Assembly: GCA_963695435.1 (NCBI GenBank)
Contig: OY968788.1
Span: forward strand, 349,456-413,455
Direction of reading: 5' to 3'
From: an uncultured bacterium
Lineage (GTDB): Bacteria; Patescibacteriota; Kazan-3B-28
DNA: 64,000 bases
Part shown: in pieces, positions 13,424 through 60,876 of the stretch
How positions within the stretch are numbered: the stretch's first letter is position 1
How the letters are laid out: the number at the start of each line of letters is the position of its first letter
The notes under the pieces: generated by a model
What the model saw: only the letters and a program-made list of their open reading frames with translations
What the model was told of the DNA's origin: nothing
Databases searched by the model: none
Position numbers and translations under genes: made by a program

Positions 13424-13517
13424 GGAGGTAAGAGCAGTGAGCTTGTTTCGACTTGTCGAAATGGGCTTTGCCCACGAGCGTTGAGGGAGGGAAATACCTC
13501 GTCCTTCCCTCAAGAGC
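13424..13517 (-). repeat. X-element copy 1 (structured ~95-nt repeat) between rpsI stop and secE start, sense orientation
   Basis: shares CGCTCGT, GGGC-AAA-GCCC hairpin and CAAGCTCACTGCTCT with copies at 35106-35200 and 24262-24360; stems differ but remain paired. Confidence 0.6.
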
Positions 13518-20442: not shown

Positions 20443-20885
20443 TATTTGAGAATTTCTACTGTTCCACCCTGCTCTTCGATTTTAGCGCGGGCGCCGGCAG
20501 AAATAAAATGAACCTGTACTTGGTATGCACCAGTAATGGCGCCTTCGCCTAAAATCTTTACTTTAGTATCAGACATAATCGTACCCGCTTCAACAAGTTG
20601 TCTGGCGTCCAATTTATTTTCTTTAGCATACCTCGGCACATCTTTCAGATTGATTTTGATTTCGCTAAATTTGCGCTGGGAGTGAAATCCTCTGCGCTTA
20701 GCCAACCTTCTAATCAGCGGAGTCTGACCGCCTTCAAAGTAGGCCGGAATATTACCGCCCGTTCTGGCTTTCTGACCGTTGTTCCCCCGCCCGGCAGTAG
20801 AACCGCCACCGGCTGATGAACCACGACCAATCCGCTTGCGAGCGGGTTGCTTGGTGATCCCTACGATTTCATGCATAGCATCCAT
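20442..20885 (-). CDS. rplO: 50S ribosomal protein L15
   Basis: Gly-rich N-terminus, 147 aa; directly follows rpsE with no L30 gene between. Confidence 0.95.
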   Translation of the reverse strand: MDAMHEIVGITKQPARKRIGRGSSAGGGSTAGRGNNGQKARTGGNIPAYFEGGQTPLIRRLAKRRGFHSQRKFSEIKINLKDVPRYAKENKLDARQLVEAGTIMSDTKVKILGEGAITGAYQVQVHFISAGARAKIEEQGGTVEILK

Positions 20886-20898
20886 AATAGTTTACCGA

Positions 20899-21489
20899 TT
20901 ACTTAGTATCTTCCGCTTCCTGCTTGGCAGGTTTTTGAGGTTTAGATTTTCCGCGGTTTGCCAGAATATCAGCCGACGGACGAATGTCATCCAGCGCCTG
21001 AATAGTTGCCACCACATTACTGATTTTATTAGATGAACCCATAACTTTTGCGACGGCGTCTTTGATCCCAGCCAGTTCCAGAACAATCCGAACAGCACCA
21101 CCGGCAATAAGTCCTGTACCGGACTTGGCCGGCTTGATCAAAACTGTGGCGCTCTTGTGACTGGCTTGTACCCGATAAGGCAAAGTACCGTGAACCATAT
21201 GAATAGTTTTGACATCTTTCTTTGCTTCGTTGACTGCTTTGGCAACGGCAGTGGTAACATCATTAGCTTTCCCCAAGCCATATGCCACGCGATTAATTTT
21301 ATCGCCCAAAACTACCAGCGCTCTGAAACGCATTCTTTTGCCACCTTTTACCACACGGGTAACGCGATTGATCTCCAGCACCCGTTCCTGGAATTCTGAT
21401 GGAGCGGCTTCCCGACGACCGCCGGGGCGGCGTTGCCCGCCGCGATCACCCCTGCCGCGACCCTGATTGTGAGATTGAGGTCTTTCCAT
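20899..21489 (-). CDS. rpsE: 30S ribosomal protein S5 with R/G-rich N-terminal and Lys-rich C-terminal extensions
   Basis: VTRVVKGGKRMRFRALVVLGD. Confidence 0.95.
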   Translation of the reverse strand: MERPQSHNQGRGRGDRGGQRRPGGRREAAPSEFQERVLEINRVTRVVKGGKRMRFRALVVLGDKINRVAYGLGKANDVTTAVAKAVNEAKKDVKTIHMVHGTLPYRVQASHKSATVLIKPAKSGTGLIAGGAVRIVLELAGIKDAVAKVMGSSNKISNVVATIQALDDIRPSADILANRGKSKPQKPAKQEAEDTK

Positions 21490-23891: not shown

Positions 23892-24259
23892 TAGAGTACC
23901 TCGGGTGCTAAGGAGATTATTTTCATAAAGTTCTTATCACGAAGTTCGCGAGCAACCGGTCCAAAAACACGAGTCCCGCGAGGCTGCTTCTGGGCGTCAA
24001 CAATAACTACGGCATTGTCATCAAACCGGACATAGCTTCCATCACTCCGACGAATTGCTTTCTTGGTACGAACAATCACCGCTCGCACGACATCCTTTTT
24101 CTTAACAACACCTGTTGGAGAAGCTACTTTGACTGCGCAGACAACAATGTCACCTACGCCGGCATAACGCCGACGGGAACCGCCAAGTACCTTGAAACAA
24201 CGAACCGCTTTCGCGCCAGTGTTGTCAGCTACTTTCAAATTGGTTCCTTCTTGAATCAT
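23891..24259 (-). CDS. rplN: 50S ribosomal protein L14
   Basis: [17 protein letters not shown]. Confidence 0.95.
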
Positions 24260-24261
24260 AG

Positions 24262-24360
24262 AGTGCCTCTCGAGAGGGCAACCAAGAGGTTTTCCTCTCG
24301 ACGCTCGTCAGCAAAGCTGAGTTTTGGTGAACCAAAACCAAGCTCACTGCTCTCCCTTCC
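24262..24360 (+). repeat. X-element copy 3, inverted (antisense to operon), filling the 126-nt rpsQ-rplN spacer
   Basis: + strand reads CCTCTCGAGAGG...CCTCTCGA-CGCTCGT-CAGC-AAA-GCTG-A-GTTTTGG-TGAA-CCAAAAC-CAAGCTCACTGCTCT. Confidence 0.6.
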
Positions 24361-24385
24361 TTTAAATATAGTAATTGTTCTCATA

Positions 24386-24658
24386 TTACAAATCTGCTGA
24401 TGTTATTTGATTCTTACCCGGCATAATCTGAATAACTTCCCAATGTTTTGTCTTACTCAACGGTCTGGTTTCACCAATCGATACCAAGTCGCCGACTTTG
24501 ACTTTGTTCTCGGCATCGTGGACAGCAAAACGCTTAGTCACCCGAACCCGTTTTTTGTAAAGCGGATGAGCGACATAAGTGTCCACCTTCACAATGACGG
24601 TTTGTTCACCGGCACGGGAAATGGTTACGCCAATTTTTTGTTGTCTAATTTTCTCCAT
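24386..24658 (-). CDS. rpsQ: 30S ribosomal protein S17 (start at internal Met MEKIRQQ; track ORF extends upstream into rpmC)
   Basis: conserved S17 core. Confidence 0.85.
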   Translation of the reverse strand: MEKIRQQKIGVTISRAGEQTVIVKVDTYVAHPLYKKRVRVTKRFAVHDAENKVKVGDLVSIGETRPLSKTKHWEVIQIMPGKNQITSADL

Positions 24659-29203: not shown

Positions 29204-29255
29204 ATAAATCCTTCTTCTGGTCCCATTAGACGGGACGCGGAAGTAATAAACAGAG

Positions 29256-29317
29256 TCTAGAGAGTAGAGATGAGAGAATAGAGATTGGCTCTACACTCTC
29301 GTCTCTCTTCTCTAGAG
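29256..29317. repeat. TAGAG-unit hairpin repeat copy A (28-nt purine arm, loop ATTGG, 29-nt pyrimidine arm) between rpsJ and rplC
   Basis: TCTAGAGAGTAGAGATGAGAGAATAGAG / CTCTACACTCTCGTCTCTCTTCTCTAGAG imperfect inverted repeat. Confidence 0.6.
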
Positions 29318-29320
29318 CTT

Positions 29321-30954: not shown

Positions 30955-31080
30955 AAATCCCTCTCAAAAACTTCTTATAGATTAGTATAGGTGTAAAAAA
31001 GATACTTTTAGAAAATACCTAAATTTGGAGAATAAAGCAAGGGTTTTTTCTGGGAAAATCGCCCATAGGAGGGGCTTCAG

Positions 31081-31118
31081 ATATAAAAGTGGGGCGGCGG
31101 GTCTTCCCGCTGCCCCAC
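31081..31118 (-). terminator. strong intrinsic terminator GTGGGGCAGCGGGAAGACCCGCCGCCCCAC + UUUU after plsC-like gene
   Basis: read on minus strand. Confidence 0.7.
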
Positions 31119-31135
31119 AAAATGGGCTTCGCCGA

Positions 31136-31858
31136 TCAGTCATACCAGGCTCTCATATCCTTTTTACTTGGCTGGAGCTCTTCCGGCAACATGGCGCGTA
31201 TCCGCCATGCAAGTCTACGAACCTCTCTCTTGAGAACATCCCTGGGGATGGTTTCTCCTAGATTGGCTCTGTAGCTAATCCGATAAGGAGCCCCGAAGAC
31301 GATCCTGATTTGGGACGGCCGGGGAAACTTACAGCCCTTCGGCAGGGCTCGGTGACTTCCAACAATGACGGCTGGTACGATGTGGCACCCACTGATAATA
31401 GCTGCTTTGACCGCCCCCGATCTACACCGCTCCATTCGGGGAGTATCACTGCGCTTCCCTTCTGGGAACATCATGATGGTTTCCCCATTTTTGAGAAGAT
31501 CGAGGGTGTACTCGAAGGCTGCCTTGGGGCTGCTTCGATGAAGTGCAACGGCTCCCAGCCCGATAATTACCCAAGCGAGTAGTTTGCTCAAACAGCTCTT
31601 CCCTTGGAAGAGTTCTATTTTGGCAATAACCCTGACCCTTCTGGGTATAGATATCCCAACCAATGGCGGATCAAGGTAGCTAATATGATTAGCTACCACC
31701 AGTACGCCTCCAGATTTAGGGACTTGAGACAGCCCGACAATCCGAAGCCTAAACCAGATCACTGCGCACACCAACACGATGGTGCGGATGCTCCAGTGAA
31801 AGATTATTTGCCACACCGACATAGGTCGGTGTGTCGAGTGTTTGCCTGACGACAACAT
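31136..31858 (-). CDS. 1-acyl-sn-glycerol-3-phosphate acyltransferase family (PlsC-like), ~52% GC
   Basis: motif I VVANHISYLD (HxxxxD), motif III FPEGKRS. Confidence 0.75.
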   Translation of the reverse strand: MLSSGKHSTHRPMSVWQIIFHWSIRTIVLVCAVIWFRLRIVGLSQVPKSGGVLVVANHISYLDPPLVGISIPRRVRVIAKIELFQGKSCLSKLLAWVIIGLGAVALHRSSPKAAFEYTLDLLKNGETIMMFPEGKRSDTPRMERCRSGAVKAAIISGCHIVPAVIVGSHRALPKGCKFPRPSQIRIVFGAPYRISYRANLGETIPRDVLKREVRRLAWRIRAMLPEELQPSKKDMRAWYD

Positions 31859-31937
31859 TGTGGGGGTGCGCCTCCTTTTTGATTTGAAGTGCCCTATAAA
31901 AATACCACTCGATTATTAGAAATGCAATCCCAGAGTC

Positions 31938-31965
31938 TAAAAAGCAGTCCGAAGAATCGGACTGC
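31938..31965 (-). terminator. intrinsic terminator GCAGTCCGATTCTTCGGACTGC + U-run
   Basis: read on minus strand. Confidence 0.6.
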
Positions 31966-31992
31966 TTGAAGTTTTGAATATTTTGTGGTGTA
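31964..31992. repeat. 29-bp direct repeat copy 1 GCTTGAAGTTTTGAATATTTTGTGGTGTA
   Basis: 27/29 identical to 32978-33006. Confidence 0.8.
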
Positions 31993-32002
31993 GCTTGGGT
32001 AT

Positions 32003-32034
32003 AGAAAAGGGGTCGCGGATTGCTCCGCGACCCC
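32003..32034 (-). terminator. intrinsic terminator GGGGTCGCGGAGCAATCCGCGACCCC + UUUU after hypothetical gene
   Basis: perfect 11-bp stem. Confidence 0.7.
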
Positions 32035-32069
32035 TGTGTTGTAGGTAAGGTGCGCTTTGACTAGCTCCT

Positions 32070-32801
32070 CTAGTCGAGCGAATGAACACCCCTCTCTTCT
32101 CCTATGTTGGCATAGAGGGCAATGCGAATGCATCCCGCCATGTGGTGGCCCACCCTTTCGTCTAAATAAAATCTTTCCGAGATCCAGTGGCACTCAAATG
32201 AGAAAACAGTAGCTGGGTATGCTCTAGAGAGACTAAGTGCATATCTCCTATTTTCTTCGTCTCTGTAGATAGTACCCAAGAAGATTGTTGGTACATCTTC
32301 ATAACCGCTGTCTCTCGGGATGAATCTTTGGTCATGGAGCAGGCCCTGGAGTACATTAGCATTAGGAAACATCCGACCAGCCAGTGTTTTCTTGACTTCA
32401 TCGAGATTGAAACAGAATCCTGGTCGTTTTTGGTCGGGTGGATAGTACAAATCAATCTGAAACGGATTCCACTCCCACTTACCCATCGAGGTGTCGTGGC
32501 TCTCAATCCTACCCTTGATATGAAGCCTATCTACAGGGGCGGGAGCCGCACAGTCAATCACCAAACTCGAGCGCTTCTTGGTTCGTTTGGAGGGAAGCAT
32601 GGGTTTCAGTAATTTGGCGCAAACTGGTTCGAGGGGTTTGCCCTCACGAATAGCTTGCAGGATTGGCTTTGCTTGGACAAAGTATGTTGCGGTGTACTTA
32701 CCGTCACGGGTTCCTTTTGCGATAGCAAGTAGGGTGCCAATAACCCATTCCGCCCATTCTGATAGCGTAGCGGGGCTAACCGCTTTCTTTTTCCTGAACA
32801 T
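32070..32801 (-). CDS. hypothetical protein (243 aa), ~50% GC, no recognisable motifs
   Basis: long ORF flanked by terminators and the 29-bp direct repeats. Confidence 0.5.
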   Translation of the reverse strand: MFRKKKAVSPATLSEWAEWVIGTLLAIAKGTRDGKYTATYFVQAKPILQAIREGKPLEPVCAKLLKPMLPSKRTKKRSSLVIDCAAPAPVDRLHIKGRIESHDTSMGKWEWNPFQIDLYYPPDQKRPGFCFNLDEVKKTLAGRMFPNANVLQGLLHDQRFIPRDSGYEDVPTIFLGTIYRDEENRRYALSLSRAYPATVFSFECHWISERFYLDERVGHHMAGCIRIALYANIGEERGVHSLD

Positions 32802-32951
32802 AGAACCTCCTTCTGCGGGACTAGCGCAGCCAACCTCGGTTACTCTCCAAAAGGGTAGAGTGTCTAGTTGGTAAAAAACAGAGATTTCGCACTTTCAAAC
32901 TACTGTTGATTAGGTTATCTGTCAAATAAAATTGCTCTCACATTGATTTTT

Positions 32952-32975
32952 CAAAAACACCCGCCTTTGAAGCGG
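32952..32975 (-). terminator. terminator-like hairpin CCGCTTCAAAGGCGG + GUGUUUUUG after fusA
   Basis: 6-bp stem incl. one GU. Confidence 0.4.
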
Positions 32976-32977
32976 AT

Positions 32978-33006
32978 GCTTGAAATTTTGAATATTTTGT
33001 GGCGTA
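32978..33006. repeat. 29-bp direct repeat copy 2 GCTTGAAATTTTGAATATTTTGTGGCGTA, immediately after fusA stop
   Basis: see copy 1. Confidence 0.8.
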
Positions 33007-33007
33007 A

Positions 33008-35080: not shown

Positions 35081-35105
35081 TCCGTTTACATTTATTCTTT
35101 GAAAG

Positions 35106-35200
35106 GGAAAAAGAGCAGTGAGCTTGTTCTGCTGTGAGCAGAATGGGCTTTGCCCACGAGCGTCGAGAGAAAACCGTAGGTGTTCTCTCGAGACTCTCTT
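35106..35200 (-). repeat. X-element copy 2 between rpsG stop and fusA start, sense orientation
   Basis: TCGAGAGA...TCTCTCGA-CGCTCGT-GGGC-AAA-GCCC-A-TTCTGC-TCACA-GCAGAA-CAAGCTCACTGCTCT. Confidence 0.6.
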
Positions 35201-44959: not shown

Positions 44960-44980
44960 ATTTCCTCCTTTGTTTAATAA

Positions 44981-45057
44981 CTAGAGATTAGAGCATAGAG
45001 TGTAGAGAGTAAGAGCAGAATTTTTGTAATCTCTCTTCTCTCATCTCTATTCTCTGG
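44981..45057. repeat. TAGAG-unit hairpin repeat copy B
   Basis: CTAGAGATTAGAGCATAGAGTGTAGAGAGTAAGAG ... CTCTCTTCTCTCATCTCTATTCTCTGG. Confidence 0.55.
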
Positions 45058-45076
45058 CTTCCAGTATACCTGTTTT

Positions 45077-46408: not shown

Positions 46409-46490
46409 CGTCATTCTTCCTCTCAAAATCACAAACACTCGCTTCGCTCCTTGGTTTGTGATTTTGTGTTTGGGTTTTCAATCTCCGTTT
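46409..46490. repeat. Z-element copy 1: AAAATCACAAAC-N17-GTTTGTGATTTT hairpin module upstream of tRNA cluster 1 / downstream of dCMP deaminase
   Basis: ~90% identical over ~55 nt to 47515-47570. Confidence 0.6.
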
Positions 46491-47490: not shown

Positions 47491-47575
47491 TGTCATTCTG
47501 CTGTACAGCAGAATTCCTCTCAAAATCACAAACAGTCGCTTCGCTTCTTGGTTTATGATTTTGTATTTTAAACTA
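47491..47575. repeat. Z-element copy 2 plus 18-bp palindrome TTCTGCTGTACAGCAGAA abutting tRNA-Leu(AAG) 5' end
   Basis: see copy 1. Confidence 0.6.
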
Positions 47576-50959: not shown

Positions 50960-51484
50960 TTGAGTAGACCAACTCCACCACCACGAATCCGCGCTAATCA
51001 CATGATCCGAGCATCTCGGCTATTTGTGATTGACGCAGAGGGGCAGCCTCATGGTGAAATGTCCCTGCAGGACGCAATGAAGTTGGCGGAAGCGTCCGAA
51101 ATGGACTTGGTAGAGGTATCTCCCAATGCCAATCCGCCCGTAGCCAAGATTCTGGATTTGGGCAAATACAAGTACGATCTGACCAAGGCTCAACAGCGTC
51201 AGCGCAAGCACCATAAGGAGGTGGTAGTCAAAGAAGTCCGACTAGGGCCTACTATTGGCGACCACGATTTAGGGGTAAAAATCAAGCAGGCAGAGAAGTT
51301 TTTGGGGCTGGGCTATAAGGTGAAGGCCTCGGTAGTGTTCCGTGGTCGGCAGATGGCCCATATGGAGCTCGGTCATGATGTTTTACAAAAGCTGGTTGAC
51401 AGATTACGGGACAAAGCTAAAATGGAACAAGCTCCTATCCGGCAAGGTCGGAGCATTCATATTGTCATCGCTCCTGTAAAATAG
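50960..51484 (+). CDS. infC: translation initiation factor IF-3
   Basis: IRASRLFVIDAEGQ ... VVFRGRQMAH. Confidence 0.9.
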   Translation: MSRPTPPPRIRANHMIRASRLFVIDAEGQPHGEMSLQDAMKLAEASEMDLVEVSPNANPPVAKILDLGKYKYDLTKAQQRQRKHHKEVVVKEVRLGPTIGDHDLGVKIKQAEKFLGLGYKVKASVVFRGRQMAHMELGHDVLQKLVDRLRDKAKMEQAPIRQGRSIHIVIAPVK

Positions 51485-51575
51485 AGAGTAGAGCGTAGAG
51501 AATAGAGCGTAGGAAGAATTACTTTAGTTTTTGCTCCCTGCCCTCGTCTCTAGTCTCTCATCTCTCATCTCTATC
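51482..51575. repeat. TAGAG-unit hairpin repeat copy C between infC stop and rpmI start
   Basis: TAGAGAGTAGAGCGTAGAGAATAGAGCGTAGG ... CCTCGTCTCTAGTCTCTCATCTCTCATCTCTATC. Confidence 0.55.
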
Positions 51576-51580
51576 TTTCT

Positions 51581-51778
51581 ATGCCAAAAATTAAGACTCA
51601 CAAGACAGCTGCTAAGAGATTTAGCGTTACCAAAACGGGCAAAATCGCCCGTCGGAAGACTCGTGGTGCCCATAAACTGACTAACAAGACGCCTAACCAA
51701 AAACGGAGAAGCGCCCAACCGGCACAGGTAGCTGCTTCTGATGTAAGCAGAATAAGACGAATGATCGGTAAAACTTAA
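51581..51778 (+). CDS. rpmI: 50S ribosomal protein L35
   Basis: MPKIKTHKTAAKRF. Confidence 0.95.
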   Translation: MPKIKTHKTAAKRFSVTKTGKIARRKTRGAHKLTNKTPNQKRRSAQPAQVAASDVSRIRRMIGKT

Positions 51779-59725: not shown

Positions 59726-60168
59726 CTCTTTGCAAGTGTGTAACTACCCTGTACCGACGGTATAGGGAGGAAAGTCCGGACACCATTTGGGATTTGGAAA
59801 GTCGCTAACGGCGACCAGGGGCAACCCTAGGGAAAGTGCCACAGAGACTATACTAGTTCTGCTGTAAAGCAGAATGAAAGGTGAAAAGTTGCGGGATGTG
59901 TTGTGTAAAGAATTAGGCCAAACCTAATGATTTGCGCCTCTTGCCACTCGCAAGGTTCCACCGCGAGGTGGAAATTCTGGTAAACCCTTTCCGGTGCAAG
60001 TTGGACTGGACTGAATATGCTAACAACATAAATTCCAATTGAGTATATTCAGACCCCAACGCTTGAGTTCTGGAGCAATCCAGAACCTAGATAGATGGTT
60101 ACTCTACCCGCGTACATTCGCAAGACTGTACAGGGTGAGACAGAATCCGGCTTATAGCTTGCAAAGAG
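59726..60168 (+). ncRNA. rnpB: RNase P RNA (bacterial type A-like), ~443 nt
   Basis: GGGAGGAAAGTCCGGAC (P4 5' strand), ACAGAATCCGGCTTATAG (P4 3' strand), GGTAAACCC; P1 pairing CTCTTTGCAAG / CTTGCAAAGAG. Confidence 0.85.
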
Positions 60169-60172
60169 TTTT

Positions 60173-60200: not shown

Positions 60201-60265
60201 ATTACAAATAAATTTTATAAACAACTTCTACAAACAACTCACAGAACAACATCTCCCCATTACGC

Positions 60266-60287
60266 AAAACTCACGATCGTGAGTTTT
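60266..60287. promoter_or_regulatory. perfect 22-bp palindrome AAAACTCACGATCGTGAGTTTT (bidirectional terminator-like or operator) 45 nt after the Cas2-like gene stop
   Basis: read directly. Confidence 0.5.
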
Positions 60288-60331
60288 GGGGAATAATTAG
60301 ATATTTAGATATGTCGATTAAATAAATGTAG

Positions 60332-60817
60332 CTACCAGATGTGTTCGCCGACATACAGAGATACATAGCCCTCAACATCATGATAATCAACTAAATCCTC
60401 TATCCAGTCCTCGCATTTATATCGACTAATCCAGACACTAAGCTGATGTTGTTTGAAACCCAGCATCTTGATGTGACGACGAAACCTATCACGCAACTTG
60501 CGCTCCCCTTCGGGGATATCGAATACCAAAATTCTTATTTTGCCGTCAACGGCCAGTTCTTTTTTAATAATTGGTAGCATTCTAACTGCACCAAGTTGTG
60601 TCAGTCGATAATATTTTCCTTTTGGTTCTAATTCTTGCTCGTAAATCAGTCTATCAACAATTTTCTGAACCTGACGAGGATCCAATAATCGCATCCCCTT
60701 ATATCTAGTGGTCAGAGGGATAGTGAAAAATTCAAACAGACCCGCACCGGTGTGTTTGATAGCACGAATAATAAGACGGCGGACTATATTACGTTGAGTA
60801 TTTTTTGTTTTTGGCAT
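60332..60817 (-). CDS. PaaX-type protein: N-terminal winged-HTH-like region + C-terminal Cas2-like domain
   Basis: KIRILVFDIPEGERKLRDRFRRHIKMLGFKQHQLSVWI aligns with Cas2 core (VVVYDV..RRRR..L..YG.RVQYSVFE). Confidence 0.6.
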   Translation of the reverse strand: MPKTKNTQRNIVRRLIIRAIKHTGAGLFEFFTIPLTTRYKGMRLLDPRQVQKIVDRLIYEQELEPKGKYYRLTQLGAVRMLPIIKKELAVDGKIRILVFDIPEGERKLRDRFRRHIKMLGFKQHQLSVWISRYKCEDWIEDLVDYHDVEGYVSLYVGEHIW

Positions 60818-60824
60818 GTTACTA

Positions 60825-60846
60825 AAAACGTACGATCGTGAGTTTT
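60825..60846. promoter_or_regulatory. degenerate second copy of the palindrome (AAAACGTACGATCGTGAGTTTT) 8 nt upstream of the Cas2-like gene ATG
   Basis: 20/22 match to 60266-60287. Confidence 0.5.
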
Positions 60847-60876
60847 GAGGATAGAAAGTTGTGGGTAAAATAAAGA

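Follow-up and report, generated by a model that had tools for sequence, protein, structure and literature searches.

The DNA analysed here, a stretch of 64 kb hereafter called the window, belongs to a Patescibacteria lineage whose relatives have records titled 'Candidatus Saccharibacteria', 'Kazan-3B-28' or 'candidate division Kazan', and it carries a str-S10-spc-alpha cluster of ribosomal-protein and translation genes. Within this cluster, rpsQ (S17; 24386-24658, minus strand; protein beginning MEKIRQQ, stop codon at 24386-24388) lies upstream and rplN (L14; 23891-24259, minus strand) downstream of a 126-nt spacer (24260-24385), which holds a hairpin-rich insert that we term copy 3 of the X element. 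The genes flanking this insert are all on the minus strand. In a spacer table covering the whole cluster, the ribosomal-protein junctions of the window fall between -20 and +16 nt; larger gaps are confined to the three X sites (112, 120 and 126 nt), rpsJ-rplC (117 nt, occupied by a hairpin element other than X), rpsS-rplV (62 nt) and map-rpsM (614 nt). The last of these reflects genes absent from the list of open reading frames (ORFs) used, and relatives have infA and rpmJ there.

A covariance-model search placed the structured core of copy 3 at 24266-24359 on the plus strand (107.5 bits, E=6e-29), in agreement with BLAST, and recovered two further copies on the minus strand. Copy 2 (35106-35195; 95.2 bits) occupies the 120-nt rpsG-fusA spacer, and copy 1 (13425-13517; 88.8 bits) occupies the 112-nt rpsI-secE spacer, where it sets in about 1 nt past the rpsI stop codon; Pfam confirmed the secE gene, and likewise nusG. 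Sensitive BLAST of the spacer against the window gave reverse-complement matches at 35088-35193 (74%, E=9e-13) and 13424-13516 (70%, E=1e-7), and the covariance model, run over all 64 kb with its filters off, found nothing above 16 bits beyond the three copies. The strands returned by both methods (plus for copy 3, minus for the other two) bear out the claim of a preliminary description of this DNA that copy 3 runs opposite to the other two copies; its label of 'sense' for copies 1 and 2 is arbitrary, there being no evidence that identifies a functional strand. The core of the element spans ~94-95 nt (94 nt in copy 3) and the whole inserts 109-155 nt, with a G+C content of 52-54% in the core against 45% for the window.

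The three window copies align with invariant blocks CGACGCTCGT and CAAGCTCACTGCTCT and three hairpins between them. In copy 3, hairpin 1 (24270-24301) has an outer stem TCGAGAGGG / TCCTCTCGA and an inner stem AACC / GGTT, and it is followed by a conserved unpaired block, ACGCTCGT (24301-24308, plus strand), which is identical in seven of the ten copies of the family. Hairpin 2 (24308-24320) consists of a 5-bp stem with an AAA loop (TCAGC AAA GCTGA) and hairpin 3 (24321-24338) reads GTTTTGG TGAA CCAAAAC. The block CAAGCTCACTGCTCT (24339-24353, plus strand), identical in the three window copies, is succeeded by the pyrimidine tract CCCTTCC, which becomes the purine-rich GGAAGGGAG in the mRNA. 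An A+T-rich tail (24360-24385), homologous to the tails in the related loci L001, L005 and L019, adjoins the rpsQ stop codon, with the mRNA reading TAA and then TATGAGAACAATTAC. At the other edge, positions 24260-24269 (AGAGTGCCTC on the plus strand, GAGGCACTCT in the mRNA) hold the rplN Shine-Dalgarno sequence GAGG, which is thus kept in the window right after hairpin 1.

Covariation and pairing were assessed on an alignment of ten copies, comprising 24 pairs and 240 pair cells. Across the three hairpins 97.5% of the cells are paired, and 17 of the 24 pairs show changes on both sides; none of 500 shuffles did as well, and with the partner shifted by 1-3 columns only 33-52% of cells remained paired. 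The hairpins differ in how they are constrained. First, hairpin 1 keeps its sequence across copies, including the palindrome CTCGAG in both arms, with 96.7% of cells paired over its 12 pairs, seven of which have changes on both sides. Second, the hairpin 2 stem, CAGC in copy 3, appears elsewhere as GGGC/GCCC, TGGC/GCCA or CGGC/GCCG, always with matching partners. Third, hairpin 3 varies freely in sequence with constant pairing and shows compensatory changes at all seven of its pairs. For each of the three window copies and on both strands, the fold beats dinucleotide shuffles (z -2.3 to -5.2). The strand present in the rpsQ-rplN mRNA folds stably, at -44.1 kcal/mol (z=-3.0), in keeping with the earlier proposal that the operon mRNA carries the reverse-complement fold. 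A further helix that we had considered, GCUUG:CGAGC closing the structure between the conserved blocks, was removed from the model: it needs a G·U pair on one strand, the copy in the metagenome locus L011 breaks it on that same strand, and the distant variant in L002 pairs in another register.

The pair census yielded 230 Watson-Crick cells, four G·U on one strand, five A·C (that is, G·U on the other strand) and one other. These counts (4 against 5) favour neither strand, and an attempt to assign a strand from them was abandoned. As there is no strand signature and little wobble, the constraint on the X stems looks strand-symmetric, with wobble far below what one would expect of an RNA acting from one strand. 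These data bear on two explanations. The first is a selected cis-acting RNA of ribosomal-protein operon mRNAs, in which a host protein binds hairpin 1 and the blocks, X serves as operon punctuation for stability, processing or the uncoupling or tuning of translation, and the mobile-looking distribution is secondary. The strong covariation speaks for it, but a strand-specific RNA should tolerate G·U and not A·C, and the two are equal and tiny (4 and 5 of 240). We regard this explanation as possible, if doubtful. The second is a site that acts as DNA, being bound or extruded as a hairpin or cruciform and recognised by a protein of the host or of the element; this might be a recombinase of the tyrosine or HUH type, such as those that recognise REP or IS200/IS605 ends, or a nucleoid or replication factor, and orientation with respect to transcription would be irrelevant to it. 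Stems that are strand-symmetric and almost purely Watson-Crick, together with the CTCGAG palindrome in both arms of hairpin 1, are what this explanation leads one to expect. It is countered by the want of any direct evidence for a DNA-binding partner, and on the whole of the evidence we judge it distinctly unlikely.

Several more conventional identities were considered for X and set aside. Searches of Rfam 15, whose families include ribosomal-protein leaders, ribozymes and HEARO/IS605 RNAs, with the whole window at the gathering threshold and with 24230-24420 at E<=10, gave no match, which also tells against the cis-acting RNA, and ARAGORN reported no tRNA-like gene or tmRNA in the three X spacers. 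The sole intrinsic-terminator call consisted of hairpin 2 followed by GTTTTGG, which is in fact the 5' arm of hairpin 3, and no sigma-70-type promoter consensus was found at any copy on either strand. A promoter-like TTGTAA-17-TACTAA in the tail of copy 3 did not survive the promoter scan, and copies 1 and 2 lack it. A boxA-like reading of TGCTCTT(A/T) is at most tentative: the lambda/rrn boxA fits copies 1 and 2, most copies have TGCTCTCCC, and at rplN the motif is on the wrong strand. The literature searched furnished no report of such repeats in Saccharibacteria or in the candidate phyla radiation (CPR). We also weighed whether X is a gene in its own right, either an independently transcribed small RNA or a small peptide with a Shine-Dalgarno-like GGAGG and a GTG AGC TTG start on the purine-rich strand. 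Every X copy does have a GGAGG-like purine-rich tract 5-8 nt ahead of the conserved GTG, and public annotations place ORFs of 40-46 amino acids over X. The peptides from this GTG, however, range from 15 to more than 40 amino acids, with unconserved stops, and run into rplN out of frame; their similarity merely mirrors nucleotide conservation, and the stems covary, which is the opposite of codon conservation. The missing promoter and terminator argue in the same way against a small RNA gene, so that we consider either kind of gene very improbable.

All the related loci were fetched through ribosomal-protein genes, a sampling that bears on how far X can be called restricted to this cluster. With this scope, the X family has ten distinct members spread over five genomes, within a narrow group of Patescibacteria that databases label as Saccharibacteria or Kazan; they occupy six junctions of the str-S10-spc-alpha cluster and occur in both orientations. 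The orientation that copies 1 and 2 have in the operon mRNA is seen at S9-secE, S7-fusA (two genomes), fusA-tuf and S10-L3, and the opposite one in three species at S17-L14 and in two at L14-L24. Among the loci fetched, the covariance model assigned two copies to L019, at S7-fusA (L019_A) and L14-L24 (L019_B), two to L028 (Kazan bacterium, GCA_001771185.1), at S10-L3 and L14-L24, and a distant variant (43 bits) to L002, just past fusA; in the loci L003, L007 and L022-L027 it found no X copy. A two-block exact pattern had a single true match among 185,579 species genomes (L001) and a single one among 241 million metagenome records (L011, the same element as that of L019). Two further metagenome matches, L009 and L010, lie by chance within G+C-rich coding sequence, and a scan of viral contigs with the exact pattern returned none. 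Exact patterns are too strict for variants such as L019_A and L028_A/B, which were reached through protein handles.

This distribution can be read in more than one way. The occurrence of ten of ten copies in translation-cluster junctions and the low copy number are both points for a cis-acting RNA. S17-L14 and S9-secE are operon boundaries in E. coli, and the coincidence of several X sites with such boundaries is another. Orientation, moreover, is fixed per junction: the two genomes with X at S7-fusA carry it as in copies 1 and 2, and the five with X beside rplN, on whichever side, carry it the other way round. Against this, the occurrence of both orientations means that the mRNAs carry two different sequences. 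For a DNA-level site, the two orientations are just what would be anticipated; their coexistence within 22 kb of one co-oriented gene block nevertheless goes against strict strand-specific single-strand targeting.

We then compared the rpsQ-rplN junction itself among relatives retrieved via S17, L14 and L24 protein handles. The two genes overlap by ATGA in L002 (S17 85% identical to that of the window), L003/L004 (77%), L007/L008 (84%), L022-L024 (82%), L025-L027 (75%) and L028, and they are separated by 6 nt in L019 and by 10 nt in L006 (S17 93%). A 126-nt spacer with X in the same orientation is shared with the window by L001 and L012-L018, by L005 (S17 87%) and by one window-like contig. 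L001 and L012-L018 represent one species in at least eight independent assemblies, with an L14 protein identical to that of the window. Since the 126-nt spacer was recovered in at least 10 contigs assembled independently from different samples, the mis-assembly that the preliminary description had raised as a possible refutation is excluded. Another contig, with an S17 91% identical to that of the window, has a tight S17-L14 junction and an L14-L24 spacer of 161 nt.

In mRNA sense, L006 reads TTTGTAA, then GAGGCACTCT, then the ATG of rplN, and the window reads TTTGTAA, 116 nt, GAGGCACTCT and ATG, the junction being otherwise the same. The 116-nt block with no counterpart in L006 (24270-24385) thus falls precisely in the gap that follows the rpsQ stop codon and precedes the rplN Shine-Dalgarno sequence, with 1 nt at most duplicated. 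This clean difference, together with the overlaps and short spacers of the other relatives, confirms the view that the rpsQ-rplN junction is normally tight. By flanking-gene identity to the window (rpsQ/rplN), L006 (93.0%/91.6%) is the closest relative in the sample, followed by L001 (91.6%/89.7%) and L005 (84%/83%). With L006 unfilled and both L001 and L005 filled, the site has switched between the two states inside a very shallow clade.

These junctions also supply arguments on both sides of the cis-acting RNA. The upstream stop codon is left intact by X, and in the window the downstream Shine-Dalgarno sequence is retained too, which speaks for it. In L001 and L005, on the other hand, the insert removes the rplN Shine-Dalgarno sequence and brings none, and the absence of X from the tight junctions of close relatives (L006, L002, L003, L022 and L025-L027) implies that it is dispensable. 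Furthermore, the rpsG-fusA junction, home to X copy 2 in the window, is occupied in L012, from a very closely related species, by an unrelated insert (148-308) made of CGCGAGT repeats around a GTCGCC...GGCGAC hairpin (GTCGCCGTGGGCGAC), which indicates that such junctions have been repeatedly invaded by hairpin elements.

The similarity among X copies tracks neither host relatedness nor junction. The L005 copy at S17-L14 and the L019 copy at L14-L24 are 90% identical, whereas third-codon identity between the respective rplN genes is just 40%, that is, saturated. Copies at the same junction are less alike: at S7-fusA, window copy 2 and the L019 copy share 67%, and at L14-L24, the L019 and L028 copies share 78%. 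Even at the rpsQ-rplN site, the copies of the three species are mosaics of hairpin-2 and hairpin-3 variants and of flank types. To judge from these sequences, X copies have evidently been exchanged, converted or re-inserted.

We lean towards reading X as a non-coding palindromic repeat, present in few copies and akin to ERIC, YPAL or miniature inverted-repeat transposable elements (MITEs), that inserts or recombines near stop codons either way; objects of this kind are known, while the family, and the host group for such objects, are new. The preliminary description had offered three options for the opposite orientations, namely a mobile MITE- or REP-like origin, a DNA-level function, or a fold that serves in either orientation. 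Of these, mobility or recombination gains support from the patchy presence of X among genomes with a flanking-gene identity of at least 90% and from the incongruence of copy similarity with hosts, and a fold serving in either orientation gains support from hairpins that are strand-symmetric and almost purely Watson-Crick; strict membership in the MITEs is not established.

A considerable set of observations weighs against a mobile palindromic repeat. Its copy number is very low: the window has three, and the exact pattern occurs once in the L001 genome and once in a 601-kb contig. All copies lie in the ribosomal-protein and translation cluster, and the remaining ~38 kb of the window has none, which might point to a function, with the reservation that ribosomal-protein genes were the handle for every related locus. 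L006 might represent a clean secondary loss instead of an ancestral empty site, because L001 and L005 are filled and L006 shares the exact 10-nt right flank of the window. Terminal inverted repeats are absent from copies 1, 2 and 3 and from L019_A, copy 3 compared with L006 shows no target-site duplication beyond 1 nt, and X is more G+C-rich than the genome, unlike typical A+T-rich MITEs. Ten non-ribosomal ORFs of the window were tested and no transposase or recombinase gene was found among them, a result that also counts against a DNA-level site for a recombinase. Finally, hairpin 1 and the two blocks (ACGCTCGT and CAAGCTCACTGCTCT) stay alike in hosts that have diverged to saturation at synonymous positions, a pattern that selection for some role in the host would explain just as well, as the cis-acting RNA would have it.

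We examined the ends of X against the criteria for bacterial MITEs (PMC2229807). In agreement with these, X is shorter than 200 bp and non-coding, its copies are several and dispersed, and orthologous sites occur both with and without it; target-site duplication and A+T-richness are lacking. Some copies do have short imperfect terminal inverted repeats with TA ends. Those of L001 and L005 start with TATGAATAT and finish with ATACTTCATA, giving imperfect inverted termini of ~8-9 nt, and their TA ends are a possible target duplication that is indistinguishable from element termini. L019_B at L14-L24 has an outer inverted repeat matching at 16 of 20 positions (AATACCCCTATGAACAATC ... GATAATTCACCAGAGGTATT). 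The terminal pairs TATGAA...TTCATA and AATACCCC...GGTATT are candidate ends for a partner transposase. No constant target motif adjoins a constant end of X, and the stop codon TAA abuts opposite ends depending on orientation; a fixed flanking motif is something that a DNA-level recombinase site would be expected to show. In favour of such a site, the lack of target duplication and the hairpins inset from the ends resemble IS200/IS605-type ends.

Among known repeats, one of the close parallels to the reading of X as a mobile palindromic repeat is ERIC/IRU, a 127-bp element found in transcribed intergenic regions within operons in either orientation and with filled and unfilled orthologous sites, whose transcripts form stable stem-loops with an orientation-dependent effect on the flanking mRNA (PMC2229807). 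X is comparable in its size, its non-coding nature, its presence in operons both ways and its filled or unfilled sites. It departs from ERIC in having three separate hairpins instead of one long imperfect palindrome, 2-3 copies per genome instead of tens to hundreds, no clear TA target duplication and a CPR host; no sequence likeness to the ERIC consensus is claimed, the two being set apart by the fold and by the description of ERIC as enterobacterial. YPAL/RU-2 and CIR lack canonical terminal inverted repeats or TA ends, YPAL is not A+T-rich, the internal stem-loops of CIR fold independently, and the recent mobility of both has been inferred from empty and filled sites; Rickettsia palindromic elements are listed in Table 1 of the same source (PMC2229807). 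Like YPAL/RU-2 and CIR, X shows no consistent canonical termini, is not A+T-rich and has independent stem-loops, but YPAL is abundant and makes target duplications of 3-26 bp, whereas X is rare and shows none beyond 1 nt.

Rickettsia palindromic elements are 100-150 bp in length, palindromic, and insert into essential genes or regions of a reduced, host-dependent genome. Their insertion is often in frame within a coding sequence, and their terminal inverted repeats measure 12 bp, whereas X is found only in spacers. The palindromic extragenic units of REP/BIME are located in operons in both orientations and stabilise the upstream mRNA. Their units are 20-40 nt in length, very numerous and RAYT-associated, and X, with ~95-150 nt, three distinct hairpins and conserved single-stranded blocks, has neither the unit size nor the copy number that defines them, and no RAYT gene was seen among the window ORFs tested; classical MITE and REP families likewise number tens to hundreds of copies. 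IS200/IS605-derived PATEs are small, non-coding elements with hairpins set in from the ends and no target-site duplication. X shares the subterminal hairpins and the absence of a duplication; PATEs, however, lie 3' of a fixed tetra- or pentanucleotide with fixed polarity, and X has no such motif at a constant end.

If X is such a mobile palindromic repeat, it would enter and leave gaps of a few nucleotides just past the stop codons of the str-S10-spc-alpha cluster in either orientation, and copy 3 would be one such insertion, between the rpsQ stop and the rplN Shine-Dalgarno sequence. The constraint on it combines strand-symmetric hairpins with a sequence-specific hairpin 1 and two blocks; this would fit a protein that recognises the element as single-stranded or cruciform DNA, or a need to fold in either transcribed orientation. 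Its spread might involve transposition by an enzyme, homologous recombination via the very conserved flanking genes in competent hosts, or both. One study (bioRxiv 10.1101/2023.05.02.539146, published as PMC10633639) describes Saccharibacteria as naturally competent. The low copy number, the restriction to ribosomal operons and the incongruent similarity would together fit spread by homologous recombination.

Lying within the operon, X is co-transcribed. In the rpsQ-rplN mRNA, three stable stem-loops would replace the ancestral overlap or short spacer, so that ribosomes would have to start on L14 independently, at the GAGG that is kept; as far as the sequence allows one to predict, X would thereby uncouple S17 and L14 translation. 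An effect on mRNA stability, processing or translation may likewise follow, and the processing site or translational-coupling barrier earlier proposed for S17-L14 is plausible. These readings are not exclusive, as a mobile element can be co-opted. A further reading, which we deem unlikely, makes X a lineage-specific, protein-recognised element dedicated to the ribosomal-protein super-operon of Kazan/Saccharibacteria-like genomes, that is, a new site of operon punctuation or feedback. Hairpin 1 and the invariant blocks would then bind a ribosomal or regulatory protein, and copies would be exchanged by homologous recombination. Exchange via ultra-conserved flanks would explain the low copy number, the confinement to the operon and a conservation exceeding that of the surrounding genes.

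CPR/Patescibacteria genomes are tiny, tightly packed and thought to be repeat-poor, and their ribosomal-protein genes are usually coupled by overlaps. X and at least two other hairpin-insert families of this lineage repeatedly break such couplings at essential, highly expressed junctions, and the couplings broken differ between near-identical genomes. They hence offer a natural experiment on how much the translational coupling of S17-L14 or S7-EF-G matters. The repeats might also serve as lineage-specific markers, and possibly tools, for a group that has lately become genetically tractable (PMC10633639). If X is truly restricted genome-wide to ribosomal operons, it would be a new regulatory motif. 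There is also a warning for annotation, in that spurious ORFs of 40-46 amino acids are called on X and short-read contigs break inside it. Gene callers place such ORFs of 44-46 amino acids on X-type spacers at L029 9877-10011 and at 1385-1525 of contig 7uO5K1C2, and the window-like short-read contig 3XXrEYjI stops 66 nt past the rpsI stop codon, inside X copy 1, so that the repeat appears to break assemblies. In the S10-L3 spacer of L028 (4241-4470), the X copy is followed by a tandem duplication, with a ~75-nt unit, of the X 3' block and tail; past this duplication, a strong Shine-Dalgarno sequence and an 11-codon ORF (MHRSAEQLPIS) precede L3.

Other inserts and repeats were noted in the window and in relatives. 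A second repeat family of the window, a long GA/CT-rich hairpin (TAGAGAGTAGAGATGAGAGAATAGAG ... CTCTACACTCTCGTCTCTCTTCTCTAG), is present at 29204-29320 (the rpsJ-rplC spacer), 44965-45070 and 51475-51585; the fold of its rpsJ-rplC copy has an energy of -47.6 kcal/mol (z -5.0), and this copy is conserved in the same spacer of L012. A ~150-nt repeat of L012 (8172-8328, 11904-12073 and 17350-17500; AAATCAGCAAATCAGCAAATTAAAG ... CGCAGGC[TTT/AAA]GCCTGCG ...) fills the L22-S3 and S8-L6 junctions and the junction before S13, all of which are tight in the window; from one copy to another, its central hairpin can have the loop inverted. Inserts at L012 148-308, L019 20095-20235 and L012 17891-17984 share a plan in which a small G+C-rich hairpin is preceded by short tandem motifs and followed by their complements, also in tandem. 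The fusA-tuf gap of the window (30955-33007) extends over 2 kb, against 0.2-0.6 kb or other small ORFs in relatives, and includes an acyltransferase (31136-31858), a 243-amino-acid ORF without a Pfam match (32070-32801) and a 30-nt repeat at 31963-31992 and 32977-33006. Between rpsE and rplO the gap is 13 nt (20885-20899), with no L30 gene. As L30 is usually missing in the CPR, this fits a CPR genome. Beside two tRNA clusters of the window lies a 55-nt direct repeat (46417-46471 and 47514-47568; 93% identical; TTCCTCTCAAAATCACAAACA...GGTTTGTGATTTTG) that holds an inverted repeat of its own. Just downstream of the RNase P RNA gene (59728-60170), related palindromes AAAACTCACGATCGTGAGTTTT at 60260-60292 and 60819-60851 stand on either side of a 161-amino-acid ORF (60332-60817).

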